Part shown: positions 2,690 through 59,413 of the stretch, piece after piece
Numbering within the stretch: the first letter of the stretch is position 1
How the letters are laid out: each line of letters begins with the position of its first letter
DNA from: an archaeon
Lineage (GTDB): Archaea > Nanobdellota > Nanobdellia > Pacearchaeales > GW2011-AR1
DNA: 64,000 nucleotides
Reading direction: 5' to 3'
NCBI GenBank assembly: GCA_018651925.1
Contig: JABIDC010000009.1
Location: 80,403-144,402, forward strand
The notes under the pieces: generated by a model
Database searches by the model: none
What the model was told of the DNA's origin: nothing
Seen by the model: only the letters and a program-made list of their open reading frames with translations
Program-made: the position numbers and the translations under genes

Positions 2690-4075
2690 ATGGATTTTTC
2701 TGGAGAAATAAGAGAAGAGGAGAGTTTTTTAAAAAATATTCTGGTAAAGTTTAGAAAAAAAGATTTTTCTGGAACTACTGGCCAAGCCATGAAAAACTCT
2801 AGTTATCAATTGGCTCAAAATTTAATATTTAAATTTGGATCTCTTTTATTTACCATTGTAATTGCCCGTATGCTTCTTCCAGAAAGAATGGGGCTGTACA
2901 ATCTTGCTCTTGCAACAATTATTTTATTTGTAAGTTTTAGTGATTTGGGAATTTCAAGTGCGCTAATTACATATTGTTCAAAGTTACTTGGGAGAGGGGA
3001 TTTATCCAAGGCAAAGGGTTATGTTAAGAAATTGTTCAAATGGAAATTAATTTTAATTCTTTGTGCATCTATAATTCTTTTAATTAGTGCATATTTCATT
3101 GCAGAATTTTATTATCAAAAGCCAATTTTTTATGCACTTTTAGTTGGAGCAATTTATTTGCCAGTTATCTCTTTGATTGGGTTTCTTGAACAAATCTTCA
3201 AAACAAATGAAAATTTCAAAACTCCAATGCAGAAAGAAATTCTATTTCAAATAATTAGGTTTATCTTTGTTCCCTTGGGAATTTTTTTATTTTTAGAAGC
3301 AAATTTTTCTAATCAAGGAATCGTTTCGGGAGTTCTTTTAACATTAGTTTTTTCTTATCTTGTTGCACTTATTTTCTTGGCGTTAAATGCAAAAAAGAAG
3401 ATTAAGTTTTTGCAAGAGTCTCCAAAAAAATTGGAGAAAAAGGAAGTAAAAGATTTGAAAAAATTTATTTATCCTCTAAGTGCAACCGCAATGGCGGGAA
3501 TGTTTTTTGGTTATATTGATACTTTGATGTTGGGACATTTTGTTTCTAGCCAGTACATTGCTTATTACGGAGCAGCATTTAGTCTTGTAGGAGGGGTTAT
3601 TGCAATTATTGGGTTTATGTCGCTTTCTCTGATGCCAATTTTTGCTAGAAAATCTGGAAAAGAATTAGAATCTATTTTTAGGAAAACACGAGAACTAACA
3701 ATTTTAATTTCTTTAATTGCAGGAATTTTTACCTACATTATTTCTTACTTTGTTGTTAAACTTGCGTATGGAACAGAGTACCTTTTAGCAGTACCGATTT
3801 TAAGATGGTTTAGTTTATTGGTGATTATCCTTCCAATTTTAGGGATTTATGTTAGCTATTATGTCGCCCAAAAAAAGACAAAAGAATTGGCATGGTTAAT
3901 TTTAGGAAGTGCTATTTTGAATATTGTTTTTAATTTCTTTGGAATAAATTATGGCCTCTCAGTTGGAGGGGAAATGGGTGCAGTCTTTGGAGCAGTTGGA
4001 GCTACCCTTTTGAGCAGAGGATTATATTTAATGGGATTAGTAAGTTTTAGAAAAAAGAAACTAATTAAATCATAG
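2690..4075 (+). CDS. Polysaccharide/oligosaccharide flippase, MOP (Wzx/AglR-like) superfamily
   Basis: 461 aa, almost entirely hydrophobic helices (about 12-14 TM by eye), and the first gene of the glycosylation island. The call rests on topology and context rather than a sharp motif. Confidence 0.6.
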   Translation: MDFSGEIREEESFLKNILVKFRKKDFSGTTGQAMKNSSYQLAQNLIFKFGSLLFTIVIARMLLPERMGLYNLALATIILFVSFSDLGISSALITYCSKLLGRGDLSKAKGYVKKLFKWKLILILCASIILLISAYFIAEFYYQKPIFYALLVGAIYLPVISLIGFLEQIFKTNENFKTPMQKEILFQIIRFIFVPLGIFLFLEANFSNQGIVSGVLLTLVFSYLVALIFLALNAKKKIKFLQESPKKLEKKEVKDLKKFIYPLSATAMAGMFFGYIDTLMLGHFVSSQYIAYYGAAFSLVGGVIAIIGFMSLSLMPIFARKSGKELESIFRKTRELTILISLIAGIFTYIISYFVVKLAYGTEYLLAVPILRWFSLLVIILPILGIYVSYYVAQKKTKELAWLILGSAILNIVFNFFGINYGLSVGGEMGAVFGAVGATLLSRGLYLMGLVSFRKKKLIKS

Positions 4076-6049: not shown

Positions 6050-7117
6050 ATGGAAATTAAACTTGGAAATAAATTAATCGGATCAAATCATAAAACTTAT
6101 TTTATTGCAGATATTGCCGCAAACCACGATGGAGATATTGAAAGAGCTAAAAAATTAATCTTGCTTGCAAAAGAAGCTGGAGCAGATGCGGCAAAATTTC
6201 AACATTTTGAGACAAAATCTTTTGCAAGTGAAAAGGGTTTTAAAGGATTGGGAGGAAAATTTTCGCATCAATCAAAATGGAAAAAAGCAGTGTTTGATGT
6301 ATATCAAGATGCAGAAGTTCCGGAAGATTGGACAGCAGTGTTAAAAAATTATTGTGATTTCCTCGGGATTGATTTTTTTTCAACCCCTTATGGACTAAAT
6401 ATAGTTGACCACCTAAATCCCTATGTTCCAGCATTTAAAATTGGATCGGGAGATATAAATTTTCCACAAATACTAAAAAAGGTCTCAATAACTGGCAAAC
6501 CTGTATTAATTTCTACTGGGGCCTCAACTATTGAAGAAGTTAGATTTGCCCTAAAAGAAATTAAAAAATATAATAAAGAGATTGTATTATTTCAATGCAA
6601 TACAAATTATACTGGAAGTGAGGATAATTTTAAGTATATTCATTTAAATGTTTTAAAAAAATATCAAAAAGAATTTCCAGAGGTTATATTAGGCTTATCT
6701 GACCATACTCAAGGAGATATCACTGTTTTGGGGGCTGTTGCTTTGGGGGCGAGAGTTATTGAGAAACATTTCACTGATGATACTAAAAGAGAGGGTCCAG
6801 ACCACCCCTTTTCCTTGGATCCCCCTTCTTGGAAAAAAATGGTTCAAAGAGTAAGAATACTTGAAAAATCCTTGGGGAATGAAAATAAAAAAATTGAAAA
6901 AAATGAAATTGAAACAGTAATTCTTCAGAGAAGATGTATTCGTGCAAAAAAAAATATTTTGGAGGGCTCTTTAGTTAAAGAAGAAGATATCGAATTTCAA
7001 AGGCCAGCCCCCGCGGGAAGTCTGAGTCCAAAACATTCACCTGAAATTGTTGGGAAAAGAGCATTAAGAGATATTTCAAAAGAAGATGTTTTGAACTGGG
7101 AAAATATCCAAAAATGA
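6050..7117 (+). CDS. Nonulosonic acid synthase, NeuB/PseI/LegI family
   Basis: TYFIADIAANHDGDIERAKKLILLAKEAGADAAKFQHF N-terminal TIM-barrel signature, GLSDHT motif and a C-terminal SAF-like domain (ILEGSLVKEEDIEFQRP). Confidence 0.85.
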   Translation: MEIKLGNKLIGSNHKTYFIADIAANHDGDIERAKKLILLAKEAGADAAKFQHFETKSFASEKGFKGLGGKFSHQSKWKKAVFDVYQDAEVPEDWTAVLKNYCDFLGIDFFSTPYGLNIVDHLNPYVPAFKIGSGDINFPQILKKVSITGKPVLISTGASTIEEVRFALKEIKKYNKEIVLFQCNTNYTGSEDNFKYIHLNVLKKYQKEFPEVILGLSDHTQGDITVLGAVALGARVIEKHFTDDTKREGPDHPFSLDPPSWKKMVQRVRILEKSLGNENKKIEKNEIETVILQRRCIRAKKNILEGSLVKEEDIEFQRPAPAGSLSPKHSPEIVGKRALRDISKEDVLNWENIQK

Positions 7118-7734
7118 ATTTGGAAGAACAGTATGAGATTGGAATTGTGTTATGCCATGAAATTGATAAATCTGGGAATTTAAGCAAGGAAACAATCGCT
7201 AGAACCGATTTTGGAATAGAATTATACAAAAGAGGAAAAATTAAAAAAATTGTCTTATCTGGGGGAAAAATAAATGGGAACAGTTTTTCTGTAGCCGAAA
7301 AAATGTTGGAATACGTATATACAAAAATTAGAGAAATTCCCTTGGTTGAAGATATTTCTCTTGATACTTCCGGACAACTCATATTTCTCAAAGAAGCAAT
7401 AATCGATCCACTGAAGATAAAGAGTTTTTGCATAATAACTCATAATTGGCACCTCCCAAAAACAGAATTTATGGCCAAATACTTATTTCCTGAAGGTTAT
7501 AAAATGAAATTTATGGGAATAGAGCCAAATAAATACCTGAAAGAAGGAAGGGAAGATATAAAAAAAATCCCCCAATTTTTAGAAACTTTCAAAAAACTAG
7601 CCGGTCATGATGGAACCTTGACAGAATACTTGTTAAAATATCATCCCTGGTATTCTGGGGCATACCCCTTCGCAAAATTCAATAAAGGATATTTTTCAAA
7701 TAATGTAAAAAGGATTAAAGAAAAATATTCCTAA
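7114..7734 (+). CDS. DUF218 (YdcF/ElyC-like) domain protein
   Basis: IGIVLCHEID...KKIVLSGGK...SVAEKM...ISLDTSGQ...CIITHNWHLPK follows the DUF218 pattern. The ATG overlaps the synthase stop (ATGA). Confidence 0.55.
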   Translation: MNLEEQYEIGIVLCHEIDKSGNLSKETIARTDFGIELYKRGKIKKIVLSGGKINGNSFSVAEKMLEYVYTKIREIPLVEDISLDTSGQLIFLKEAIIDPLKIKSFCIITHNWHLPKTEFMAKYLFPEGYKMKFMGIEPNKYLKEGREDIKKIPQFLETFKKLAGHDGTLTEYLLKYHPWYSGAYPFAKFNKGYFSNNVKRIKEKYS

Positions 7735-7820: not shown

Positions 7821-8519
7821 ATGAAAAGAAAAGAAAATATTGTAGTTATAATTCCTGCGCGTGGAGGAAGTAAGGGAATTCCTGGAAAAAATTTAAAACT
7901 TTTGCAAAACAAGCCCCTCTTAGCGTACCCTATCGAGGCAGCATTAAAAGTAAAAGATATTGATAGAGTTATTGTATCTACAGATGATTTGGAGATTGCA
8001 GAAACTGCAAAAAAATATGGAGCAGAAATATTATTTATGAGACCAAGTGAACTCTCTGGAGACATGGTTCCAACGACCCCTGTATTGCAACACACTATTG
8101 ATTGGTTAAGAGAACACGAAAAATTTGAAACAGACATAGTAGTTTTATTATATGCCACCTCTCCACTATTAGCTTCGGACAAAATTCAAGAAGGGATTAA
8201 AACAATTAAAAATAACTTGGAAGTTGATTCGGTTGTTTCTGGATGTATAGATGATAAATACCATTGGAAAATTAAAAAGGGAAATCTTAAAAGATTTTAC
8301 CCCTTGGAACTTGCCCCTAGACAGCAAATGGATCCTCTTTTTATTGAAAATGGCGCACTATACATTGTTCGTTCAAAAACTATGAAAGAGACTGGAAGAT
8401 ATATTGGTGGAAGAATAAAACATATTTTTATGGATGCAAAAGATTCATGGGATATAGATGAAGAATCTGACTTTGAAATTGTTGAGGCCCTTATGAAAAA
8501 GAAAAAGAATAAACTCTAA
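7821..8519 (+). CDS. CMP-nonulosonic acid synthetase (acylneuraminate cytidylyltransferase, NeuA/PseF/LegF family)
   Basis: VVIIPARGGSKGIPGKNLKLLQNKPLLAYPIEAA N-terminal cytidylyltransferase signature; 232 aa. Confidence 0.85.
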   Translation: MKRKENIVVIIPARGGSKGIPGKNLKLLQNKPLLAYPIEAALKVKDIDRVIVSTDDLEIAETAKKYGAEILFMRPSELSGDMVPTTPVLQHTIDWLREHEKFETDIVVLLYATSPLLASDKIQEGIKTIKNNLEVDSVVSGCIDDKYHWKIKKGNLKRFYPLELAPRQQMDPLFIENGALYIVRSKTMKETGRYIGGRIKHIFMDAKDSWDIDEESDFEIVEALMKKKKNKL

Positions 8520-10234
8520 ATTAATTCTTTTTTTATTATTTCTACCACCTTTTCACTTGATTTGCCCTCAAAAATGATATTTTCTTTTATATCTTTTTTC
8601 TTAAATGGAATAAAAGATTTTATCTGCTTTTTAATTTCGGATTCTAACGCTTTTTCAGTGTACACAACATTCACTCCAGGAAATTTTTTGTAGGAATTTA
8701 CTTTATCTAAATCTGGATAGGATAATGAAATAAGTGCATTTCCAAGCAAGCACGCTTCAACTCCCATGGTGCTATGATTTACAATCACTCCTGCTGCTTC
8801 ACTCAATAATTTAGGATTATCTGTTTTTTCTATTATCTCATAGTTGTCAAACTCTTCAGATTTTGCAACCAAAGGAATAATTTCTTTTAATTCCCAATTA
8901 GGACGAATTTTTAAAATTAATTTATAATCTGGAATTTTTTTCATTACTCTAAACATCTTTTTAAGAAGTTCTTTTTGTCTTTTTCTCGTTAAATGTGTAT
9001 CTGGAAGCATTACTCTTTCGTTTGTTATTTCCATGGCATATACTATTTCTTTTTTATTTCTTTTTGCAGAATTCCATTCAAACGAATCATATCTTGGGCA
9101 ACCAACTGATAAAACCTTTGTTTTTTTGGAACAATTTTTCTCTATTGCTTTTTTTGAAACATTCCCAAAAACAAAATAATAATCTGCATAGGTAAAAGTT
9201 CCTACTCCATATGTCATCAAACCATGTTGGAACACACAAGTTTTTACACCAAATTTATTTGCTAATTTTATAATTCCTCTAGATAAAGGAGCACTGTCTT
9301 CACTTAAAAAAATTAAATCAATTTTCTTTTTATTAAATAAGGAATAAGCTTCTTCCAAAGCTCTTAGAACATTTGTTATCTTTAATTCTAGCAAGGTATA
9401 AATATTTTCTATTATATACAGTTGTCTTTCTTTTTCAATATGGATTGACGAACCCAATTCTTTTTTAAAATTAGATAAATCTTCTTGAAAAGTTTTTTGC
9501 AAAGGTGATTCTTGTCCAGAAAATTCATAAAAAGGAGCATAAATGCCTCTAATAAAAAAACTTTTTCTCAACCGATCACTAAAATCAATTATTTTATTTT
9601 TTGATAATTTATTAATTAAATCCATAAAATAAATCTTTCCCCCCGAGGTGAAAATTTTATTTTTATTTTTTGAAAGGCCTATTCTTAATAAAGTTAAAAA
9701 TTTTTGAACAGAACTTATAGGATAGAGAATAAGCGATTTAGATTTTTTGGAAAGGAGGGCTCCCTTATAGTTTACTAAAATTATTTTTCCTGAATAATTT
9801 TCTTTGGCTAATAAAAAAATATTTTCTTTCCCAAATCCATTTTTAGAATTGAAGACTATTATTTTTTTTGGTTTCTCTAACTCAATTATTTTCTTAAAGA
9901 GAAGGGAATATTTTTTTGAATTTGCTAAAATAATAAAAATATCATAATAAAATAATTCTAAAACTGGGATTTCCCGATATTTTAAATTTGATTTTTTTAT
10001 TATTTTCCAAGTATCTTTCATGGCTTCCGAACTAATATTTTTTAGATTTATTTTATCTTCATAGTCTTCATCTTTTTTAAAAGAGATATGATTTTCCAAA
10101 AGTATTTTTTCTACTTCAAAATTAAATGAAATTGGTAGCACCCCTTTATATTTTGACTTATTTTTTAAATAGTTTTCAACTTGAAATTTATTTTCTAAAA
10201 AGATTAAATTTGATACGCTTTTTCCATCTTTCAT
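8516..10234 (-). CDS. Orphan 572-aa protein with a possible GT-B-like (KpsS/TagF-type) C-terminal half; candidate sugar-acid transferase
   Basis: Long clean ORF with an ATG start. VFQHGLMTYG...VGCPRYD and VIVNHSTMGVEACLLGNALISL resemble capsule-synthesis and glycerophosphotransferase-type GT-B proteins. The 3-prime end converges on, and overlaps by 4 nt, the CMP-sugar synthetase gene. Function is inferred only. Confidence 0.4.
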   Translation of the reverse strand: MKDGKSVSNLIFLENKFQVENYLKNKSKYKGVLPISFNFEVEKILLENHISFKKDEDYEDKINLKNISSEAMKDTWKIIKKSNLKYREIPVLELFYYDIFIILANSKKYSLLFKKIIELEKPKKIIVFNSKNGFGKENIFLLAKENYSGKIILVNYKGALLSKKSKSLILYPISSVQKFLTLLRIGLSKNKNKIFTSGGKIYFMDLINKLSKNKIIDFSDRLRKSFFIRGIYAPFYEFSGQESPLQKTFQEDLSNFKKELGSSIHIEKERQLYIIENIYTLLELKITNVLRALEEAYSLFNKKKIDLIFLSEDSAPLSRGIIKLANKFGVKTCVFQHGLMTYGVGTFTYADYYFVFGNVSKKAIEKNCSKKTKVLSVGCPRYDSFEWNSAKRNKKEIVYAMEITNERVMLPDTHLTRKRQKELLKKMFRVMKKIPDYKLILKIRPNWELKEIIPLVAKSEEFDNYEIIEKTDNPKLLSEAAGVIVNHSTMGVEACLLGNALISLSYPDLDKVNSYKKFPGVNVVYTEKALESEIKKQIKSFIPFKKKDIKENIIFEGKSSEKVVEIIKKELI

Positions 10235-16993: not shown

Positions 16994-19669
16994 TTATTTA
17001 GTAAATTTCAAATTATCTAATCCAGCATATTCTCCAGATAAATCTAGGAATTCTTCTCTGGCAACAATCTCTTCTGGAACATTTACCTTCCAAATTTTTA
17101 TTGGTCCTTGAATTCCATTGAAGTAAAAGAATTCTCCAATGTTTGCCCCATTTAGGTAAGGAGAGACTTCCGAATGAACCAGTTCAAGCCCGTCATATTG
17201 ATTAAAAGAATTATTCAATAGATAAGCTTGGGCAACCAAACTATTCATTGTTTTAGGAGAAAGGTAAATTAGTGTTCCAAAATTATCTGCCTGGTATCCT
17301 TGATTTCCAGAGATAATTCTTGGGATTATCGAAATAGTAGATTCAAGTCCTTCTTCAAATTCGATAATTTCTCCGCCGAGATAAACATATTTAAGAGGGA
17401 TTTGTATTTGTGCCCCATTATAGCTGAAAACTCCTTGGGGTTGAATCAAATTTCCTTCGGTGGTTGTTTCAAAAAGAACTCCTATTATTGCAGACTTATA
17501 TGCTGGAAGAAAAATTTCTTTTCCCTCCAGAGTATAAATAATATCTTGATCAACAATTGTTGCACCTTGGAAAATCCTAACCAGACTATTAGATTTTTCT
17601 TGAATTTGAGAAGGATCAGAAAACATTACTGGCAATGTAGAATATCTATCTTCTCCTTCTGGTCCGCTTCCGATTTTACTGTATGCCCCGTATTTTCCAA
17701 TGTCTGAAGGATCAATTAAAAGATATGAAACATTTTGAGCTTTCATAAAACTATATGCTGTTTCCGGATTTGGAGTAGTTAAAACATATCTTCCAATAAG
17801 GTGGTCCCAATAAGAATTTGCATGGCCTCCATCTGTTACGCTTGGCCTTTCTCCAAGATATTCTACCCAATAGCCATAATCCCACCAATGAACAAAAATT
17901 TCTCCTTCTTGAGTGTTGTTTCTAACCCAAGACATTGCTTGTTGCCACTGTTCATTTGCAGAAGGGCCAGTATATTTGGCCTGGACCGAAATTGTTTCAG
18001 AAAACCCTACAAAGTTAATTATTAATCCGATTGAAGCAAGTACTAATAAAATTCCAACTAATGTTTTTGTTGCGCTTTCTTTATTTTTCTTAAATAGATT
18101 TACTAATGAAAATATGAAATATGCAATCATAAAACAAATAAAGGGAACGATTGCAAAGAAAAGTCTTATCGCTCCTCTTGTGGCAATCAACATTGGAACC
18201 AACCAAGCGAAAATAAGAATCAAATTTGAATTAATTTTGATCTCTGATTTGAGATATGCTCTAACAGAGTAAATAATAAAAATTATTGCCCCTATGAAAT
18301 AAAGTAGCTGACTAATGAAATTTTCCCCATTCAAAAACGAATCTCCTGAAATACGGCTAAAAAGGATAGAGGAAATAAGAATTATCCAAGAGGCAAAAAA
18401 GAATCTCTTCTCTTTTCTCTTTTTTATTCCTTTTGAAATATCAAATCCTAAAAAAAGCATTCCAAAATAAAATATCCAAAATACAGTCTTTCCAATTTGA
18501 GAGAACCAATCAACAAGGTAAGGTTGAGCATTTTCTGCGACAGTTAATCCAACTCTTCCTGCCCCAAATGGTTGTAATAATCTTCCTCCAATCTGAGATA
18601 AAAGTTCTCCAAGATTTCCTACAAAGATTGAAAAGAAAATTGCTCCCAAAAAGAAAGTAAGAACCCCGCTAGTTAGGAGAGGATATTTCTGAGGTGTTTT
18701 ATTAACCTTTTTTAGAAAATATTTCTCAAAGAAATAATTTATTGGAAAAAAAATCGCTAAAAATAATGTAAGAATTCCACTGGTGCTAAGTAAATATCCT
18801 TTAATGAGGGTTATTGAGGAATACCCAAAAAATTCTCCAAAGATTAAAGTGAAAATAACCCAAATTAGATAAAATATCAAATAAGATAGAAGAGATTTAG
18901 AACCTTTATTTTTTGATTCAATAAGCCAGATTAATAAAAATGAAAGGGGGATGATCATAAATAAGAATTTAGCAATTCCTCCCCAGGATAGAAGAGAGAA
19001 AATTGTTGAAAATGCAAGAAGTAATGATAAAAGAATTAATTTCCAATTAATTTTTCTTAATTTTTCTAAATACTTTAATGAAAGGGAAAGGATGAGAAGG
19101 GCAAGGAAGAAAGACATCATTCCAATTGCTTCGTGATCTGAGAATCCCGCCATTGTCCTATGAAGATAAGGAGGAATTACTGCCAAAAACCCGCTAGAAA
19201 GAAATGCCACCCATTTATTTGAGGTTAAACTCCAGATTAAAAGAAAAAATAAAATCATTCCTAAAACATAAAAAACAACAGGAGATAAAACATCAATTTG
19301 TTGTAACGAATATTCTCCAAATGTGTTCGCTAATTTGTACAAAAAGACTATTGCTTGAGGCAAAATTTCTTGGCTAAATCCAACTTTCAATGAAGGATAT
19401 CTCATAAGATCAGATTCCGGTAAGTGCCCCTCTAAATTTATTGTTTCCGCTAATCTTAAAAAATAAAAAGGATCCAAAGCAAGAGGAATATATTCTCCAG
19501 TAGTAGAATCTTTTAACAAAGGAACATTTGAAAGTCTAATTGAAGAGGTCCAAATAATAAGGGATAAAAATAAGATAATCAAAATTATATTTTGGACTTT
19601 TTGTTGAGAAAAAAAATTAATTACTGGCTTGCTTTTTTCTTTCAACAATTGAATTTTCTTCTGAACCAT
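16994..19669 (-). CDS. aglB: Dolichyl-(mono/di)phosphooligosaccharide-protein glycosyltransferase AglB (STT3 family)
   Basis: 891 aa. The N-terminal half has about 13 TM helices and the C-terminal domain is soluble. The diagnostic WWDYG motif is present ([15 protein letters not shown]). Confidence 0.9.
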
Positions 19670-40606: not shown

Positions 40607-40657
40607 AATCTCTTTTAGAAAATAATCTTTTTAAATATTATTAAAGAAAAAATTAAA

Positions 40658-40737
40658 CGCCCCCGCCAGGAATCGAACCTGGGAGCCACAAGGGCCCGGC
40701 TCTCAAGGCCGGTGCACTACCATTATGCGACAGAGGC
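40658..40737 (-). tRNA. tRNA-Ser (anticodon UGA)
   Basis: Manual cloverleaf. Acceptor GCCTCTG/CGGGGGC (two GU pairs). D arm GCAT-AATGGTA-GTGC. Anticodon arm CCGGC-CTTGAGA-GCCGG (U33, UGA). Long 13-nt variable region. T arm CCAGG-TTCGATT-CCTGG. Discriminator G. No encoded CCA and no intron. Confidence 0.8.
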
Positions 40738-40817
40738 GTATACTTAACTACAGATATTTTTGGTTTTAAAGATTTCTATTTGCAAAGATTTAATAATTTA
40801 AATTACTTCAAAGAAGG

Positions 40818-50954: not shown

Positions 50955-50980
50955 ATCTCTATGCTCTTTTTTCCTATAAT

Positions 50981-51053
50981 GGGGCTATGGGGTAGCCTGG
51001 TAGCCTTCGAGCTTTGGGAGTTCGCGACCCCGGTTCAAATCCGGGTAGCCCCA
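50981..51053 (+). tRNA. tRNA-Pro (anticodon UGG)
   Basis: Manual cloverleaf. Acceptor GGGGCTA/TAGCCCC. Anticodon arm CGAGC-TTTGGGA-GTTCG (UGG, G37). T arm CCCGG-TTCAAAT-CCGGG. Discriminator A. No encoded CCA and no intron. Confidence 0.85.
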
Positions 51054-51077
51054 TGAAAATTAACAAATAGAAAACAA

Positions 51078-52241: not shown

Positions 52242-52637
52242 TTATATCTTAGCAACAGAGAAAACTGTTTTTAATGCCACTATTATTGTTGCAGGAACAA
52301 ATAATGCAAGTAACGCTGCAAAAGTGGAAGAGACTGTGTCTCCAATTCCAATCCCAATTAATGATCCTGTGACACTTTCCATACCAAATTTACTTACGAT
52401 TACCAAAATTGCACTCGCAATCAAAAATGTTTGGGAATCAGACTTTCCTGAGACGTTAATGGAAAACCCAACAAATAACCCCAACATAACTAAAATTGCA
52501 TAAATTTGAGGGCTATATGAAATAATTTTCTGTAAGGGAAAAATGGACCCTGCACTAATTCCAATAAGAACCGCTAAAATTACTCCAACTAAGAACGCCC
52601 ATGCTCCAATTGAATTTTCTCTCGATTTAAGTGTCAT
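52242..52637 (-). CDS. Four-TM membrane protein, hypothetical
   Basis: 131 aa, an ATG start and four clear hydrophobic helices. No family recognised. Confidence 0.5.
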   Translation of the reverse strand: MTLKSRENSIGAWAFLVGVILAVLIGISAGSIFPLQKIISYSPQIYAILVMLGLFVGFSINVSGKSDSQTFLIASAILVIVSKFGMESVTGSLIGIGIGDTVSSTFAALLALFVPATIIVALKTVFSVAKI

Positions 52638-52799: not shown

Positions 52800-52807
52800 T
52801 TTATAAA
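52800..52807 (+). promoter_or_regulatory. TATA-box-like TTTATAAA upstream of the surface-protein gene
   Basis: Ends 26 nt before ATG 52834. Confidence 0.5.
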
Positions 52808-52833: not shown

Positions 52834-54726
52834 ATGAAGATCAAAACATTCAATTTCATTATTGCAAGTATGTTTTTATTAGTTCTAGCTACAAGTTTTA
52901 CAAGTGCAGCATTGACTTTAACTGAAATAAATGTTCCAGTAAATTCAACTCACGGATCAACAATTAATGTTGAAGTTAGCTTATTATCTGATTCAAATTA
53001 TACTAATTTAACTTGGGATGGATCAAATGCTGCTTTTGATGTTTCTTCTCTTCCTTTAGAAATTACAGAAGATGAGACAATAAATTTCACCGTAGAATTA
53101 ACAGTATCAGAAGATGCGGGAATTTTTTCTGCAGATCTTAAGGTAAAGGATAGTATTTCCTCAGATGGAGACTTAATTACAATCTCAACAACTGTTTTAG
53201 AAAATAAAGAATTATCTGTGACAAGTGCAACTCTTTCAGGAGATTCAACAACAATTACAATTACCAATGAAGGAAATGTAAACTTAGAAAATATTGTTTT
53301 AACAAGTTCAATTGGAAATTTCGAAATTAACTTCTCAGAAAATAACTTTAATTTAGCTAAAGGGGCTACAAAAGAAGTTACAGTTACTCTGGTAAATGAA
53401 GATAGCGATTTAATCGGAACTAATACTTTAACAATTACTGCTACTGCTGAAGATGGAACAAGTTCAACAGGAATAATTACAAGAGGAGCAGGATTTTGTG
53501 AAGCAATTCCTTCATTAGAAGATTTGAGAATAAAAAGCATTGACATTTCAAACAGAGGAATGGAACATATTACTTTTGGAGAGGAAGAGAAATGGTATCC
53601 TTTCGAAGAAATTGAAGTTACAGTAGAATTAGAAAATAGGGGAAATAACGATATAGAAGATATTGAAATTGAATGGGGATTATATAATAAAGAATTAAAC
53701 GAGTGGGTTATTGAGATTGATGAAGCAGACAAAGTTGATTTAGATGAAGATGATGAACTTGAAGTAACATTTAGTTTCACATTAGATGAAGGAGATTTAG
53801 AAATTGATTTAGACGAATTAACTAACGGAAATGATTATGAACTTTATGTTCGGGCAATTGGAGAATTCTCCGAAGGAGATAATGAAGGAGAACAAACTTG
53901 CGTTGAAGATAAAGAATCTGCAGAAGTAGTTATTGAAGACGATTTACTTGCCTTAAATGAAATCACTTTCAATGAAGACATAACTTGTGATTCAAAATTA
54001 ACAATTAATACAGAAGTTTGGAACATTGGAGAAGATAAACAAAAGGACTTTTATATTAGGGTTTCAAATAACAAATTAGGGATTAGCGAAGAATTTGAAT
54101 TTGAAGATTTAAAGGCTTTTGATTCAGAAGATTTAATAATCAATTTAGAAATTCCTGGAAATCTTGATGAAGGAAAATATGATTTGAAATTTGAACTTTA
54201 TGATAAAAATGATGATCTTTACGAAGCAAACGATGAAGAAGCAGAATTTTATGTTAGATTAAATGTGGCAGGAAATTGCGAAGTTAAACCAACTTTGGAC
54301 ATTTCAGCAACATTACAAGAAGCAAGAGAAGGAAAAGAAGCAGAAATTATAGTTGAAGTAACAAACTTAGGAGATTCAACTCAAACTTTTGATTTAAGTT
54401 TAGCTTCATACAATTCATGGGTTGAAAGTTATGAACTTAGTACAGATTATTTGGTTCTCCGAGGAGGAGAAACAAAAGAGATTGTAATCACAGCATTAAT
54501 TAAAGATGATGTTGTTGGAACAAATGAATTTGAGCTTTTATTAACTTCAGATGATGGAATCGAAACTCAACCTATTGAAGTAGAAGTAGTAAAGAATTCA
54601 GGACTTTTCGGATTTACTGGACTTTCAATTGGAGGAAATGTCTACGCTTCAAGTTTAACTGTTTTAATTTTAATTTTAGTAATTATTATTTTAGTGTTAC
54701 TAATTGTTAGAAAATTAAGAAAATAG
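52834..54726 (+). CDS. Acidic secreted cell-surface protein with a C-terminal sorting-signal-like anchor (CARDB/Ig-like repeats probable)
   Basis: Signal peptide MKIKTFNFIIASMFLLVLATSFTSAA. Many N-x-S/T sequons. Repeated beta-rich segments (VTVTLVNEDSD, VTVELENRGNNDIED, VEVTNLGDSTQ). The C-terminus is GLFGFTGLSIGG, a TM helix LTVLILILVIIILVLLIV, then basic RKLRK. Confidence 0.7.
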   Translation: MKIKTFNFIIASMFLLVLATSFTSAALTLTEINVPVNSTHGSTINVEVSLLSDSNYTNLTWDGSNAAFDVSSLPLEITEDETINFTVELTVSEDAGIFSADLKVKDSISSDGDLITISTTVLENKELSVTSATLSGDSTTITITNEGNVNLENIVLTSSIGNFEINFSENNFNLAKGATKEVTVTLVNEDSDLIGTNTLTITATAEDGTSSTGIITRGAGFCEAIPSLEDLRIKSIDISNRGMEHITFGEEEKWYPFEEIEVTVELENRGNNDIEDIEIEWGLYNKELNEWVIEIDEADKVDLDEDDELEVTFSFTLDEGDLEIDLDELTNGNDYELYVRAIGEFSEGDNEGEQTCVEDKESAEVVIEDDLLALNEITFNEDITCDSKLTINTEVWNIGEDKQKDFYIRVSNNKLGISEEFEFEDLKAFDSEDLIINLEIPGNLDEGKYDLKFELYDKNDDLYEANDEEAEFYVRLNVAGNCEVKPTLDISATLQEAREGKEAEIIVEVTNLGDSTQTFDLSLASYNSWVESYELSTDYLVLRGGETKEIVITALIKDDVVGTNEFELLLTSDDGIETQPIEVEVVKNSGLFGFTGLSIGGNVYASSLTVLILILVIIILVLLIVRKLRK

Positions 54727-55305
54727 TTTTATTTCTTTAATAAATTTAGAGTTACTTATTTTTATTCCTAACTTCCCTAACGCATATCCTGCTGCCGCAC
54801 CAATTAATACATCGCTTACATAATGGACTCCAAGATAAATTCTTGATAAACAAATCAAGATTGCAAAAATTAACCAGGCAACTCTAAGTCTCGGAAATTT
54901 ATTAGAGATGATTGAAAAAGTTGCAAAGGCAAGCATTGCATGAACCGAGGGAAAGGAAAAATTCCAGATAAGGTGAGAGGATTCAACCAATTTTTCCGAA
55001 GCAATTGGAATTATTTTTTCTTGATATGGTCGAAGTCTTTGGACAAAGAATTTTAATAAAAATCCAAGAATCACTGTTGTACCAATTGAAAACCAGAGTG
55101 GAAATCTCAGTTTTTTAGAAAACAATGAAACAAGGACAAGAAAGAAAATTACCATGGTTGTAGAGCTGATAAATTCAATTCCTAAAAAGAAACTAGTTAA
55201 GAAACCAACTCTGAGGTTAACAAGCGATTTTATCAAAAACTCATCAAATAGAAGGGTTATTAGTCCAAGAACAAACAATATAATGGGAATCAACCACCTT
55301 TTCAT
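54715..55305 (-). CDS. PAP2-family lipid phosphatase (dolichyl/polyprenyl pyrophosphate phosphatase candidate)
   Basis: All three PAP2 motifs are present: KFFVQRLRP, FPSVHA and SRIYLGVHYVSDV. Confidence 0.85.
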   Translation of the reverse strand: MKRWLIPIILFVLGLITLLFDEFLIKSLVNLRVGFLTSFFLGIEFISSTTMVIFFLVLVSLFSKKLRFPLWFSIGTTVILGFLLKFFVQRLRPYQEKIIPIASEKLVESSHLIWNFSFPSVHAMLAFATFSIISNKFPRLRVAWLIFAILICLSRIYLGVHYVSDVLIGAAAGYALGKLGIKISNSKFIKEIKLFS

Positions 55306-55353
55306 GAGGATTAAAACCTTAAAATACTTAAATAGATTTCTACTTCTCTCTTT

Positions 55354-55887
55354 ATGAAAAAAGAGGGAAAAAAGCTATTGGGCCTTTCAATAAGATATTT
55401 CATTTTAATTTTATTAGCAATCCCGAATCTTTTTATTTTCTATTTTGTTTTTACTCCTTTGACTCTTTATCCAGTTTATTTTTTACTTAATTTATTTTTT
55501 GATACAATCTTGGTGAAGAATATAATTATTCTTTCTGGCACACTTCCCATAGAATTAATTCCTGCTTGCATCGCAGGGGCAGCATACTATTTATTATTAA
55601 TTTTAAATCTGTCAACTCCAGAAATAAAACTTAACAAAAGAATTAAAATGATTTCAATTTCCCTCATAACCCTTTTAATTTTAAATATATTAAGGATTTT
55701 TTTCTTGAGTATTGTGGCTTATTCTGGTTCTCCTCTTTTTGACATAACTCATAAAATCTTTTGGTATTTAGTAAGTACATTATTCGTAGTGGGAATTTGG
55801 TTCTGGCAAGTAAAGAAATTTAAGATAAAAGAAATCCCGATATTTTCTGATTTAAAGTTTTTATATTCGAAAACCAAAAAGAATTAA
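55354..55887 (+). CDS. Exosortase/archaeosortase-family protein (short, pacearchaeosortase-like)
   Basis: 177-aa polytopic protein with a membrane-embedded Cys (IELIPACIAGAAYY, Cys72), then Arg 41 residues later (LILNILRIFFLS, Arg113), then DITHKIFW. This layout fits the conserved Cys/Arg motifs of the family. It lies next to a protein with a matching C-terminal signal. Confidence 0.6.
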   Translation: MKKEGKKLLGLSIRYFILILLAIPNLFIFYFVFTPLTLYPVYFLLNLFFDTILVKNIIILSGTLPIELIPACIAGAAYYLLLILNLSTPEIKLNKRIKMISISLITLLILNILRIFFLSIVAYSGSPLFDITHKIFWYLVSTLFVVGIWFWQVKKFKIKEIPIFSDLKFLYSKTKKN

Positions 55888-56561
55888 TTATTTGTTTTAA
55901 GCAATCCTTCAACAATAAATCTTTCCTTTGCTTCAAAAATTTCACAATTATTGACATGAAATTCATAGCAACTTGGTCCAATTTCTAAAACTTTTGTTGT
56001 TTCTCCAGGAATTAGTTTAATGAAAGTATATTCTCCATCCGTCTCGCATCCGCCATCCGAAACGCCTACTAATTTTGTTCCCCAAGCTTCAAACATCTCT
56101 TCTAATAAAACTGTTGATATTTGATCATATCCTTCACAATGTAGCTCTGAGTTTGTTTCAATAAAAGCCATATTTTTTAATAAAATATTTCCTTCAAAAG
56201 GAATTTCTTTTTGTATTTCTCGAGGGTCATGACGCAAATAAATATTATGGGTGTTTGTTGGAGTTGATAAAAAAGAGGAATGATAAAAAGTTATTTCTCC
56301 TTCTGTATCTATCACATCCCACTCTAATCCCGCATAATTAAAATTAGAATTAAAGATTAAGGGGGAAAGCAAAAATCCAAGAATTAATAAAACAAAGACT
56401 CCAATTCCAATAAAGAAATTTCTTAAAATTTTGTTTTGATGTGCAATTTGACCTTTTGTTTTAATTTTTTCTTCAACAACACTTTCTTTCTCAATAATTT
56501 TATTTCCAACTTCAAAAATCTCTTTTGTTTTTGATTTTTTTGAATCTTTTTTCTTTGCCAT
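55884..56561 (-). CDS. Single-pass membrane protein with a Cys-containing ectodomain, hypothetical
   Basis: Lys-rich cytoplasmic N-terminus, TM FFIGIGVFVLLILGFLLSPLIF, and a ~150-aa ectodomain with 5 Cys. Confidence 0.5.
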   Translation of the reverse strand: MAKKKDSKKSKTKEIFEVGNKIIEKESVVEEKIKTKGQIAHQNKILRNFFIGIGVFVLLILGFLLSPLIFNSNFNYAGLEWDVIDTEGEITFYHSSFLSTPTNTHNIYLRHDPREIQKEIPFEGNILLKNMAFIETNSELHCEGYDQISTVLLEEMFEAWGTKLVGVSDGGCETDGEYTFIKLIPGETTKVLEIGPSCYEFHVNNCEIFEAKERFIVEGLLKTNN

Positions 56562-56599: not shown

Positions 56600-57163
56600 T
56601 TAGTTTATTCCGAGGATTTTTAGGATAAATGAATCAATTAGCTTTGGAATTTCTTCTTGAGATCCTTGGATATAAACACATCCGTCGTTTTGAGAAACTC
56701 CACTTTTATTCGATTCAGTGATTATAATGAAATTTGAATCACAATTTTTTACAGGTAAGTCTCCTTCGCAAGGAGAATTTTCTACACATGCAAATTGCAT
56801 TCGAGTAACAAGTTGATTAAGGTTGGCATAAATTTGAGAGTTTGCAATTAAGTTTGTAGAAGACAAATAAAGTGGCTGTGAATAATAATTTTCAATTCTC
56901 CTTAAATCCTCTTCGATTAAAATTGTTTCTTTTGGATTAGTTCTAAAAATAAATTCTATCTCGTCTTTCTCTAATTGCCAGTATCCTCCATCATTCACAA
57001 ATTCTTCTCCATTATAGGTAATTTTTTTCCTTGTAGAGTCTTGTCCTTGGAAGGCATAACCAATTGTACTAAAGAGCATAACAAAAATTAAAATTCCTCC
57101 AACAAGCAATTGGTTTCGCTGTTTTTTCTTTTTCTCTTTGACCTTTGAACTAATTTTTCTCAT
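56600..57163 (-). CDS. Single-pass membrane protein with a Cys-containing ectodomain, hypothetical
   Basis: Lys-rich N-terminus, TM LLVGGILIFVMLFSTIGYAF, and a ~140-aa ectodomain with 4 Cys. Same architecture as its downstream neighbour. Confidence 0.5.
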   Translation of the reverse strand: MRKISSKVKEKKKKQRNQLLVGGILIFVMLFSTIGYAFQGQDSTRKKITYNGEEFVNDGGYWQLEKDEIEFIFRTNPKETILIEEDLRRIENYYSQPLYLSSTNLIANSQIYANLNQLVTRMQFACVENSPCEGDLPVKNCDSNFIIITESNKSGVSQNDGCVYIQGSQEEIPKLIDSFILKILGIN

Positions 57164-57274: not shown

Positions 57275-59413
57275 TTAAGCAGTTTTTGTAACTGTTGAAG
57301 TACCGCTAACACCAGTTGTTCCGAAGTAAGTATTTCCATCAGCAACTTCGATCATAGGATCTCTGTTAACATTTGATTTCAAGTAACTTACAGCAGCTTC
57401 AGTGTTTTCTTTCTCATAACCAGCAACAACTAATGCTGTTTTACCAGTTGTGAAAGCATCACCAACAACCTTAATTATGTATTGACCAGTACCAACGTTT
57501 GTAGCTCCAGTAAATGCAGCATCACAAGTTCCAGCAGAAACTCCTAAAGCTTCAGCAGTAGCTGTATTAATACAACTTCCACCTACAAGGATAACATTTT
57601 TGTTAGCCCATGAGCTTTTATCGCTATCTGTGAAAATCATGCTTCCTGAAGTAGTAGTATCAGTTGAGATACCTCCTAAAACAGAAACTTGTGCATAAAC
57701 TTTTTCATCAGGAATACTAATAATAACTTTGTCAGCATCAGCATTTCCTTCAACTCCACTAGAATCATCTTCAGCAACAATTATACCATAATCATTCATA
57801 ATAGATTTATCTTTTGTAGATACATCTGTTCCGCTAACAAGAATATCGTTAGCATCAGCATCTTCAGCAGTAGTTCCTAATTTCTCAAGAGTACCTGCTT
57901 CATCAGCTAATGTTGTTCCTCCGATTGTAAAGTTAATATCATCGTCATCTGGATCTTCCAAAGACAATGTCATAACTCCGCTTGCAACTGTAACATCAAT
58001 ATCCATTACAGTATCTCCAATTTCAACAGTAGCAACATTTGCTCTAGCCAAAGTTTGAGTGGCGGTAAGATTTGCGTTCATTTCATAACGAGCCTTGTTT
58101 GTTGGAGTATTATCTCCATCATGGTCTCTATAGAAAACTTCCACTGCACCATATGTATTTCCATATGATTCAGTTTCTGAACCATTCTCTGCATACCAAA
58201 GGTAAATCTTATCTGTTTCTTCACCTCCAACAGTAATTGAGGAAGTTGTAGATGCAGAAATTACAATAACTTTTTCATCTTCATTAGCAACTGCGTTGTC
58301 TGAAGAATTGTATAAATCAATATCTGCAAATTCTATAGTAATGTCTTCGTAGTCAACATCTGTAGTTCCTTCAAGTGTTGCAGCAGCAAAACCTTCTGGA
58401 AGAACATAACTTTCTCCAACATATTTAATAGAATCTCCTGCTTCACTATCGTCTGCATCATTAATGTTAACATTATATGTCACACCAACGTATCCAGCAG
58501 CAGTACATGCAGTTGAAATATCCCAAACCCATAATGGGTCATCTTCGTCTTCTCCAATGTATTCGTCTCCATCAGAATAAGTCTTTGAAATATCAGTTCC
58601 GATTTTTAAAATTGCTCTACTAGTTTCTGGAGTATCTGAGTGGTAGATAATACTATCAGCTTTTACCCTGATACCATCAATCTTTTTAGATTGACCATCA
58701 TCTATTACTTCTGCATTAACCATAATTCCATCACTCCATACATCATCTAATGTAAATGTTTTACCATCTACAGTATAACTTTCCCCCACACTAAGAAGGG
58801 TATCTTCAGATGTAACAACAGTAATAGTTGTAGCAGTCATATCTTCAATTTCGTAGGATTTCCCTAAGATTGTAAGATATAAATCATCTGCAGCAGTATG
58901 TCCGATTCCTGTACAATTAAGTGCATCATCGAAAACATATCTATATGAAAGTCCCATGTTATTAGACATAGCAACTCCTTCAAGATCTTCATCATCTAAA
59001 GAAGTAAGAATTTCCATATCTCCAATTACGATTGATTCATGGATGTCATAGTCTGTTGAACCAAGTCCATCATCCCATGAAAGTTTTTCATCTAAAAGTG
59101 TTGGGATATTAGCATCAGTCATAGTTGTTTCAACTTCATACCCTGAGGCATCAATTTGAGTTCCAAATACAACTTCCTCTTCAGTTTCACCTTCTCCTCC
59201 TACAGTTGTAGTTGAAGTAGTTCCACCATTAAATCCTAACCAAGATGCAATACTTTCAGCAGACATCTGATCTGAGTTGTCAGCTTGAGCACCGTATACT
59301 ACAGCATCAAAGGCGTTATCACTTGGAGAAAGTGCAACAGCATTTCCCATAGTCATACCAACCATTAAAGCTCCAGCAGCAATAGCAGTAATTTTTTTAA
59401 AATTATTTTTCAT
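57275..59413 (-). CDS. Major secreted surface protein, S-layer candidate
   Basis: 712 aa with signal peptide MKNNFKKITAIAAGALMVGMTMGNAVALS. Thr/Ser/Asp/Gly/Val-rich and Lys-poor, with no TM anchor. It has a strong SD, a long leader and a strong terminator. By eye the codon composition is less AT-rich than the neighbours. Confidence 0.6.
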   Translation of the reverse strand: MKNNFKKITAIAAGALMVGMTMGNAVALSPSDNAFDAVVYGAQADNSDQMSAESIASWLGFNGGTTSTTTVGGEGETEEEVVFGTQIDASGYEVETTMTDANIPTLLDEKLSWDDGLGSTDYDIHESIVIGDMEILTSLDDEDLEGVAMSNNMGLSYRYVFDDALNCTGIGHTAADDLYLTILGKSYEIEDMTATTITVVTSEDTLLSVGESYTVDGKTFTLDDVWSDGIMVNAEVIDDGQSKKIDGIRVKADSIIYHSDTPETSRAILKIGTDISKTYSDGDEYIGEDEDDPLWVWDISTACTAAGYVGVTYNVNINDADDSEAGDSIKYVGESYVLPEGFAAATLEGTTDVDYEDITIEFADIDLYNSSDNAVANEDEKVIVISASTTSSITVGGEETDKIYLWYAENGSETESYGNTYGAVEVFYRDHDGDNTPTNKARYEMNANLTATQTLARANVATVEIGDTVMDIDVTVASGVMTLSLEDPDDDDINFTIGGTTLADEAGTLEKLGTTAEDADANDILVSGTDVSTKDKSIMNDYGIIVAEDDSSGVEGNADADKVIISIPDEKVYAQVSVLGGISTDTTTSGSMIFTDSDKSSWANKNVILVGGSCINTATAEALGVSAGTCDAAFTGATNVGTGQYIIKVVGDAFTTGKTALVVAGYEKENTEAAVSYLKSNVNRDPMIEVADGNTYFGTTGVSGTSTVTKTA

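Follow-up and report, generated by a model that had tools for sequence, protein, structure and literature searches.

A pacearchaeosortase and a putative PACE-CTERM substrate encoded two genes apart in an archaeon of the Pacearchaeales

The 64,000-nucleotide (nt) stretch of Pacearchaeales DNA analyzed here (contig JABIDC010000009.1, positions 80,403 to 144,402; hereafter the window) has a GC content of ~31% and carries archaeal core genes. It encodes a small polytopic membrane protein of 177 amino acids (aa) and, in the second gene upstream, an acidic surface protein of 630 aa; a PAP2 gene lies between them on the opposite strand. The locus very probably comprises a pacearchaeosortase, a member of a minimal, DPANN-specific branch of the exosortase/archaeosortase membrane-embedded cysteine transpeptidases, and its dedicated PACE-CTERM substrate, whose C-terminal tail would be removed in a Cys72-dependent manner. 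Reading of the sequence alone, in an initial annotation, had correctly recovered this sortase–substrate pair. The features of the two genes are as follows (TM, transmembrane; HMM, hidden Markov model).

52834..54726, + strand: PACE-CTERM protein, 630 aa, acidic secreted surface protein with immunoglobulin (Ig)-like/CARDB-type domains, putative sortase substrate (NF033506, 380.3 bits)
52834..52908, + strand: predicted Sec signal peptide of the substrate, MKIKTFNFIIASMFLLVLATSFTSA then ALT (read from the sequence, with a putative cleavage position)
54595..54723, + strand: C-terminal sorting signal, residues 588–630 (tail HMM, 43.7 bits)
54601–54621, + strand: signal motif GLFGFTG, G590–G596, within the 630-aa protein's tail
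Between GLFGFTG and the TM helix, + strand: linker LSIGGNVYASS, within the same tail
54655–54708, + strand: TM helix L608–V625 of the sorting signal, within the same tail
54709–54723, + strand: basic end RKLRK, within the same tail
55354..55887, + strand: pacearchaeosortase, 177 aa, archaeosortase/exosortase superfamily (NF033505, 219.6 bits; TIGR04178, 34.8 bits)
55567–55569, + strand: candidate catalytic Cys C72, in PACIAG (motif starts at residue 70), the only Cys of the sortase
55693–55695, + strand: candidate catalytic Arg R114, in NILRIF (motif starts at residue 111), conserved
55750–55752, + strand: candidate catalytic His H133, in DITHK (motif starts at residue 130), the only His of the sortase

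The 177-aa open reading frame (ORF), present on the forward strand as annotated, was compared with NCBIfam and TIGRFAM models, each of which has a curated cutoff (80 bits for NF033505, 23 bits for TIGR04178 and 110 bits for NF033506). It matches NF033505, “pacearchaeosortase,” at 219.6 bits (E-value 2.6e-65), with residues 11–174 aligned to positions 4–166 of the 167-position model, and its residues 70–151 match the superfamily signature TIGR04178 at 34.8 bits. The proposed membership in the exosortase/archaeosortase superfamily therefore stands, as both cutoffs are passed and the catalytic layout is conserved; a protein lacking any superfamily HMM match is not what was found. The models for ArtD, ArtE, XrtX, XrtY, XrtR, XrtH, and heimdallarchaeosortase score 10–27 bits against the 177-aa protein (for example, 24.6 for ArtE, 22.7 for ArtD, and 26.7 for XrtX, with cutoffs of 95, 125, and 170), and none reaches its cutoff in the range of 86–170 bits. 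The pacearchaeosortases therefore form a distinct branch. The NCBIfam model for ArtA is not among the matches of the protein, even at E≤1. Solved structures yield no relative by sequence or by fold (best E 2.5, TM-score <0.2), and structure could consequently not be used to establish membership.

Relatives of the sortase are found in 2,119 clusters of the protein database, many of them bearing the NCBI name “pacearchaeosortase,” and are encoded in at least 373 species-representative genomes, nearly all labeled as metagenome-assembled genomes (MAGs) of Pacearchaeota, Woesearchaeota, or Nanoarchaeota. Divergent sortase and substrate pairs from other genomes also pass the NF033505, NF033506, and TIGR04178 models. 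Two public records are oddly labeled: one sortase (P0013) is assigned to “Candidatus Thorarchaeota,” and one contig with a whole Pacearchaeota module (L067) to “Patescibacteria group bacterium.” Both are probably binning or labeling errors.

The sortase is strongly hydrophobic and contains one Cys (C72), one His (H133), and three Arg (R14, R96, and R114). The initial annotation had singled out the Cys of PACIAG and the His of DITHK, correctly in both cases. It had also picked the Arg of NILRIF, which is indeed conserved but is R114 rather than R113, so that the Cys–Arg spacing is 42 rather than 41 residues. C72, R114, and H133 do not vary across 25 aligned sortase homologs, which places these features beyond chance. 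Among 76 sortases from different loci, C72, R96, R114, and H133 are kept in at least 75, and R14, N85, N111, W137, and a few others are likewise invariant or have one exception. The core of the TIGR04178 family has a conserved Cys, Arg, and His, and C72, R114, and H133 agree with this layout.

An AlphaFold2 model of the sortase, built from the 25-sequence alignment (mean predicted local distance difference test score [pLDDT] 82.6; predicted TM-score [pTM] 0.75), contains helices at residues 2–22, 27–48, 70–87, 93–124, 128–155, and 162–176, and a small sheet at 51–67. It places C72 at the start of helix 70–87, R114 in the distal third of helix 93–124, and H133 near the start of helix 128–155. 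By the positive-inside rule, the Lys/Arg-rich segments 88–99 and 154–177 of this model should be cytoplasmic, which would turn C72, R114, and H133 toward the outer face of the membrane. Hydropathy, the AlphaFold2 helix limits, and the positive-inside rule, rather than a topology predictor, stand behind this placement, and all are compatible with a polytopic sortase whose catalytic residues are extracytoplasmic.

The 630-aa protein scores 380.3 bits against NF033506, “PACE-CTERM-PROT, putative S-layer protein,” with residues 4–622 on positions 2–620 of the 627-position model. Its only Pfam match is a CARDB-type Ig-like domain (26 bits; cutoff 22.7). It was described in the initial annotation as an acidic protein two genes away from the sortase, ending in a motif, a TM helix, and RKLRK, and this description is accurate: the isoelectric point is 4.05, with 133 Asp and Glu against 38 Lys and Arg, and the C-terminal end reads ...NSGLFGFTGLSIGGNVYASSLTVLILILVIIILVLLIVRKLRK. 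Five N-X-S/T sequons lie in the N-terminal 170 residues. Among the window ORFs of at least 80 aa, this is the only one whose C-terminus consists of a strong TM helix and, after it, a short tail carrying at least three basic residues, and it is also the only window ORF matched by the tail HMM (43.7 bits). An exhaustive search with the 630-aa query yielded 1,200 clusters at 50% identity (E≤0.001). The best 150 of these, which reach down to 30% identity to the query, served as a diverse set of substrate representatives, and 143 of the 150 have an N-terminal hydrophobic segment.

The tripartite tail, defined as motif, TM helix, and basic end, recurs throughout this family, a recurrence that the initial annotation had made a test of its GLFGFTG-type sequence. 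It is present in 73 of the 76 complete substrates encoded at sortase loci and in 143 of the 150 diverse representatives, 147 of which match the tail HMM. The three failing substrates at sortase loci are those of L054 and L076, which stop before the tail, and that of L067, which has the motif and the helix but a longer C-terminal extension. At L054 (4606–6369) the substrate gene is split into two ORF fragments, and at L076 (3951–5621) the ORF stops at the QPV lead-in; these losses could be frameshifts, sequencing errors, or pseudogenes.

The logo built from the 73 tails begins with Q-P-V-S-V-x-I-E at the end of the last domain, followed by 2–4 residues, S-G-F-x-G-I-T-G, and ~6–9 Gly/Ser/Asn-rich residues. 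It continues with N-W-Y-L-W-G-I-G-x-L-N at the helix entry, I-L-V-I-I-I-I-V-A-V, and R-V-A-R-K (summarized as R-x-A-R-K). The most conserved positions are the T-G dipeptide (G in 61 tails, T in 50) and the W (65), G (61), and N (63) of the helix entry; in a chosen alignment of 30 tails, the G of the dipeptide is invariant and the T is present in at least 90%. The tail of the window protein is a minority variant, which keeps GFTG and has the helix entry N-V-Y-A-S-S-L-T-V-L-I in common with its close relative at L020.

This tail is not PGF, PEF, PIP, or VPXXXP, as had been noted: none of the named CTERM domain models (PGF-, PEF-, PIP-, VPXXXP-, PEP-CTERM, and others) matches the window tail or the consensus tail alone at E≤10. 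The further suggestion that the recognition signal would be new does not hold, because the last ~55 positions of NF033506 already represent it; the window tail alone aligns to positions 571–620 (28.3 bits) and the consensus tail to positions 574–627 (66.5 bits). Relatives of the enzyme, too, already carry the name pacearchaeosortase, and NCBIfam defines both genes as a pair. The present locus is thus a correct rediscovery of an already known pair and not a new system, and nothing is added to the catalog, because the NCBI annotation pipeline already names both proteins.

The co-occurrence of tail and sortase, also proposed in the initial annotation, was followed in both directions. A total of 81 non-redundant loci were examined (80 from a scan of species genomes plus 3 contig look-ups, less 2 duplicates), 60 of which have at least 3 kb of upstream DNA. 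In 58 of these 60 the sortase is directly preceded, on its own strand, by a substrate homolog, with one copy per locus. The two loci lacking it were not counted as real counter-examples, because L060 is rearranged and L040 is probably chimeric: in the latter, from the single-cell assembly SCGC AAA011-D5, the sortase ORF (6587–7480) begins with 140 foreign residues, which points to a chimeric assembly. In the reverse direction, two substrates at 30% identity led to three loci, with an NF033505-positive gene ~47 nt downstream.

On this basis we propose the following course of events. The 630-aa acidic protein would be exported by the Sec pathway and its N-terminal signal peptide removed, after which the C-terminal TM helix would tether it with RKLRK in the cytoplasm. 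The sortase, with its active site of C72, R114, and H133 at the outer face of the membrane, would then read G-[FL]-x-G-[ILF]-T-G, the short linker, and the beginning of the helix. Cys72 would attack the substrate, free the helix and basic tail, and hand on the mature C-terminus. The acceptor would most likely be a membrane lipid, as the analogy to Haloferax ArtA suggests, and the product a lipid-anchored cell-surface protein. Cleavage and lipid anchoring are thus modeled on ArtA, and a single protein would serve as substrate.

ArtA of Haloferax volcanii is the sole archaeosortase to have been studied experimentally, and it strips a PGF, TM, and basic signal from the S-layer glycoprotein (PMC6098224, PMC9263693). 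It needs Cys173, Arg214, and Arg253, and the lipid attachment of its substrate is ArtA-dependent (PMC9263693, PMC6098224). Like ArtA, the pacearchaeosortase is polytopic in the membrane and has a conserved Cys that is followed ~41–42 residues later by an Arg, and its putative substrate resembles those of ArtA in being a Sec-exported, acidic surface or S-layer-type protein with a C-terminal signal of motif, TM helix, and basic end (PMC6098224, PMC9263693). It differs in being far smaller, with the Cys at residue 72 rather than 173 and with His133 as the third residue. Its signal is G-x-T-G several residues before the helix, as opposed to PGF, and it apparently has one adjacent substrate, whereas ArtA has up to 52 dispersed ones. 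The lineages also differ, DPANN for the former and Euryarchaeota for the latter; a 2018 review listed only ArtA to ArtE as archaeosortases, “in a subset of Euryarchaeota” (PMC6098224).

Among the other known systems, the NF033505/NF033506 pair is the closest. Both window proteins align to these models along their entire length, with scores 2.7-fold and 3.5-fold the curated cutoffs, and the way the genes are paired and the taxa in which they occur (Pacearchaeota, Woesearchaeota, and Nanoarchaeota MAGs) are the same; nothing essential differs, the window tail having a minority helix entry. ArtD (TIGR04175), ArtE (TIGR04124), exosortase X (NF046081), and heimdallarchaeosortase (NF045528) share the minimal size of 150–200 aa and the core signature, with weak cross-matches of 20–27 bits on the Cys–Arg–His core. 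These scores are far under the cutoffs of 95–170 bits, which sets the pacearchaeosortase apart as a subfamily with a cognate signal of its own. Bacterial Sortase A and its LPXTG signal likewise combine a Cys transpeptidase having Arg and His with a tripartite C-terminal signal, and the T-G of the PACE tail looks superficially like LPXT|G, an observation only and one that carries no evidence on the cleavage site. The two enzymes, however, have unrelated folds and are alike through convergence (PMC6098224). The acceptor in bacteria is a peptidoglycan precursor, which is absent from these archaea.

The pacearchaeosortase system is present in the database yet uncharacterized, and within the searchable literature it is undescribed in print; papers that pair archaeosortases with Pacearchaeota or DPANN contain no discussion of the family. 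The system seems to pair one archaeosortase with one substrate, in organisms whose genomes are very small. If this is true, it would provide a simple model for signal recognition by archaeosortases, as well as a handle on the cell envelope of Pacearchaeota-type DPANN archaea.

Several points weigh against a dedicated, catalytically active pair. The literature searched contains no experimental work on any member of the family and no paper naming pacearchaeosortase or PACE-CTERM. The third critical residue of ArtA is Arg253, compared with the conserved His133 here. The hydrophobic-T-G motif is not universal, being found in 50 of the 73 and 80 of the 143 tails, and the W-G-I-G-x-L-N helix entry, found in ~70% of tails, is missing from the window's own tail; moreover, no sortase column tracks the tail variant (W-G-I-G-x-L-N versus other), in an exploratory comparison that is confounded by phylogeny. 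The synteny extends across the clade to housekeeping genes, the order comprising Spt5, L11, L37ae, prefoldin, SepF, the substrate, the sortase, and the S-layer gene. With the entire neighborhood syntenic, adjacency alone is weak evidence of a functional link, and the case for the pairing rests instead on the family-wide, sequence-conserved tripartite tail and the conserved catalytic residues. Finally, a Pfam scan of the 177-aa protein returned zero families at E≤1, and PF09721 (Exosortase_EpsH), one of the models against which the initial annotation had proposed to check it, is among those that fail to match. A precomputed PF09721 match exists for only 2 of 120 listed sortase homologs; this model is evidently too insensitive for the minimal pacearchaeosortase branch, which the TIGRFAM and NCBIfam models cover. 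We therefore dismissed the missing Pfam match as evidence against membership in the superfamily, since the cutoffs of TIGR04178 and NF033505 are both passed.

The same observations could be read to mean that the C-terminal helix is a permanent, uncleaved anchor, that the sortase homolog has another target or a different role, and that the two genes are neighbors only through frozen gene order. The syntenic block from Spt5 to the S-layer gene, with its unrelated housekeeping genes, fits such a reading, as do the variability of the short tail motif, the want of a sortase column that follows the tail variant, and the arrangement in the window itself, where substrate and sortase would form separate transcription units, flanked and divided by genes on the opposite strand. 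The conservation of the tail, however, exceeds the needs of a plain anchor (the T and G of the T-G dipeptide, and W48, G51, and N54 in the logo), and the tail is kept in ~95% of a very divergent substrate family, the remainder of which falls to 30% identity. There is also no other protein with a tripartite tail near any sortase, and the NCBI curators arrived independently at the same pairing (NF033505 with NF033506). A permanent anchor is accordingly quite improbable. It is less probable still that the 177-aa protein is a degenerate, inactive archaeosortase relic with a structural or chaperone role in a reduced genome. Its length is very small for the family and its scores are far under the cutoffs of all characterized subfamilies (ArtE, ArtD, XrtX), but accepted subfamilies are equally small (the ArtD, ArtE, and XrtX models have lengths of 150–168), and the sole Cys, the sole His, and the three Arg residues are all conserved among 76 sortases of different species, as would be expected if purifying selection maintains a working enzyme.

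A dedicated pair also has to be set against a sortase with multiple substrates, which, like ArtA, would act on further proteins elsewhere in the genome bearing the same or a looser signal. This is unlikely, though less so than either of the alternatives above. A precedent exists in ArtA, for which genomes encode 1 to 52 PGF-CTERM substrates (PMC6098224), and the DNA examined for substrates was limited to the 64 kb of the window and to ~10 kb at each related locus. Within the window and ~0.8 Mb of related loci, however, no second tail-bearing family was found, and the best unrelated match to the tail reached 13 bits. A search of a database of 5.8 billion proteins with the tail profile, which scored only the 8,000 candidates of highest word density, returned 12 matches. 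All 12 are short fragments, and nearly all are C-terminal pieces of the same family with the QPVSV.IE lead-in; given the small number of candidates scored, the search is uninformative on one substrate versus many. The NCBIfam substrate model, for its part, describes one full-length family rather than a portable CTERM domain.

The genes around the pair are listed below. Counts of downstream neighbors refer to loci with at least 2.5 kb (n = 59) or at least 5.5 kb (n = 42) of downstream DNA.

52242–52637, − strand: conserved 131-aa multi-TM protein just upstream of the substrate gene (homologs in 55 of 83 loci)
54715..55305, − strand: PAP2-family lipid phosphate phosphatase, 196 aa, between substrate and sortase (PF01569, 81.6 bits)
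55884..56561, − strand: conserved 225-aa protein, anchored by an N-terminal TM segment, whose extracytoplasmic domain contains Cys (homolog in 59 of 59 loci)
56600..57163, − strand: conserved 187-aa N-terminally anchored protein (homolog in 58 of 59 loci)
57275..59413, − strand: 712-aa acidic secreted protein without a C-terminal anchor, candidate lattice-forming S-layer protein (homolog in 42 of 42 loci)
16994–19669 (−), 2690–4075 (+), 8516–10234 (−): AglB/STT3 oligosaccharyltransferase, Wzx-type polysaccharide flippase, epimerase-domain protein, listed jointly

The PAP2 gene, whose start is 48 nt away from that of the sortase gene, is optional: it sits between substrate and sortase in 28 of the 60 related loci. 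Among NCBIfam families its product most resembles undecaprenyl-diphosphatases, at scores far under the cutoffs; its role could be to recycle a polyprenyl carrier used in glycosylation, or the lipid acceptor could be its target. The 225-aa and 187-aa proteins have no family match in Pfam and NCBIfam scans. The 712-aa protein has five sequons and scores 19.2 bits against PF05124 (S_layer_C), under the cutoff of 23.9, while its 877-aa homolog in L001 has a precomputed PF05124 match. Having neither a C-terminal TM helix nor a basic tail, the 712-aa protein is ruled out as a substrate of the sortase. The 131-aa membrane protein is also ruled out as a second substrate: the window copy has no tail-HMM match. 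Only two of its homologs, with C-termini of the form …GSLIGIGIGD… TM …AKI, match the tail HMM weakly (13 and 10.7 bits), probably as an effect of composition.

In some relatives a VTT/DedA-domain gene (~208 aa) directly follows the sortase on the same strand (L002 8542–9165, L040 7501–8130, L060 7570–8202, and L086 6542–7171). The VTT_dom assignment is recorded for L002 and L086, and the genes in L040 and L060 were assigned from their size and a visible similarity in sequence. No VTT/DedA gene occupies this position in the window.

The constant module of PACE-CTERM protein, PAP2, sortase, sometimes VTT/DedA, two anchored proteins of ~200 aa, and S_layer_C-like protein suggests that the PACE-CTERM protein may be the membrane tether of a two-component envelope. 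Such a fixed module of five to six genes, of which no description was found in the literature searched, could work as follows: the sortase would lipid-anchor the PACE-CTERM protein as a SlaB-like tether for the anchorless S_layer_C-type protein encoded by the third gene downstream, the two ~200-aa proteins and PAP2 would be accessory, and recognition would be bipartite, through G-x-T-G and W-G-I-G-x-L-N, and reach into the membrane. We offer this fuller scheme tentatively, as a possibility that we would not expect to hold in all its parts. The window also encodes the AglB/STT3 oligosaccharyltransferase, the Wzx-type flippase, and the epimerase-domain protein listed above, together with SecY and SecD/F; these genes and the sequons would fit N-glycosylated surface proteins.

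TATA-like boxes, TTTATAAA (52800–52807) and TTAAAATA (55319–55326), lie ~27–35 nt upstream of the ATG codons of substrate and sortase. Their position suggests that in the window the two genes may give rise to separate, nearly leaderless archaeal transcripts. In relatives without PAP2, the gap between substrate and sortase is just 9–100 nt, and the two genes could be co-transcribed. The only matches in the window from Rfam and ARAGORN are a tRNA-Ser(TGA) at 40657–40738 (−) and a tRNA-Pro(TGG) at 50980–51054 (+), the latter located between the L11 and L37ae genes.

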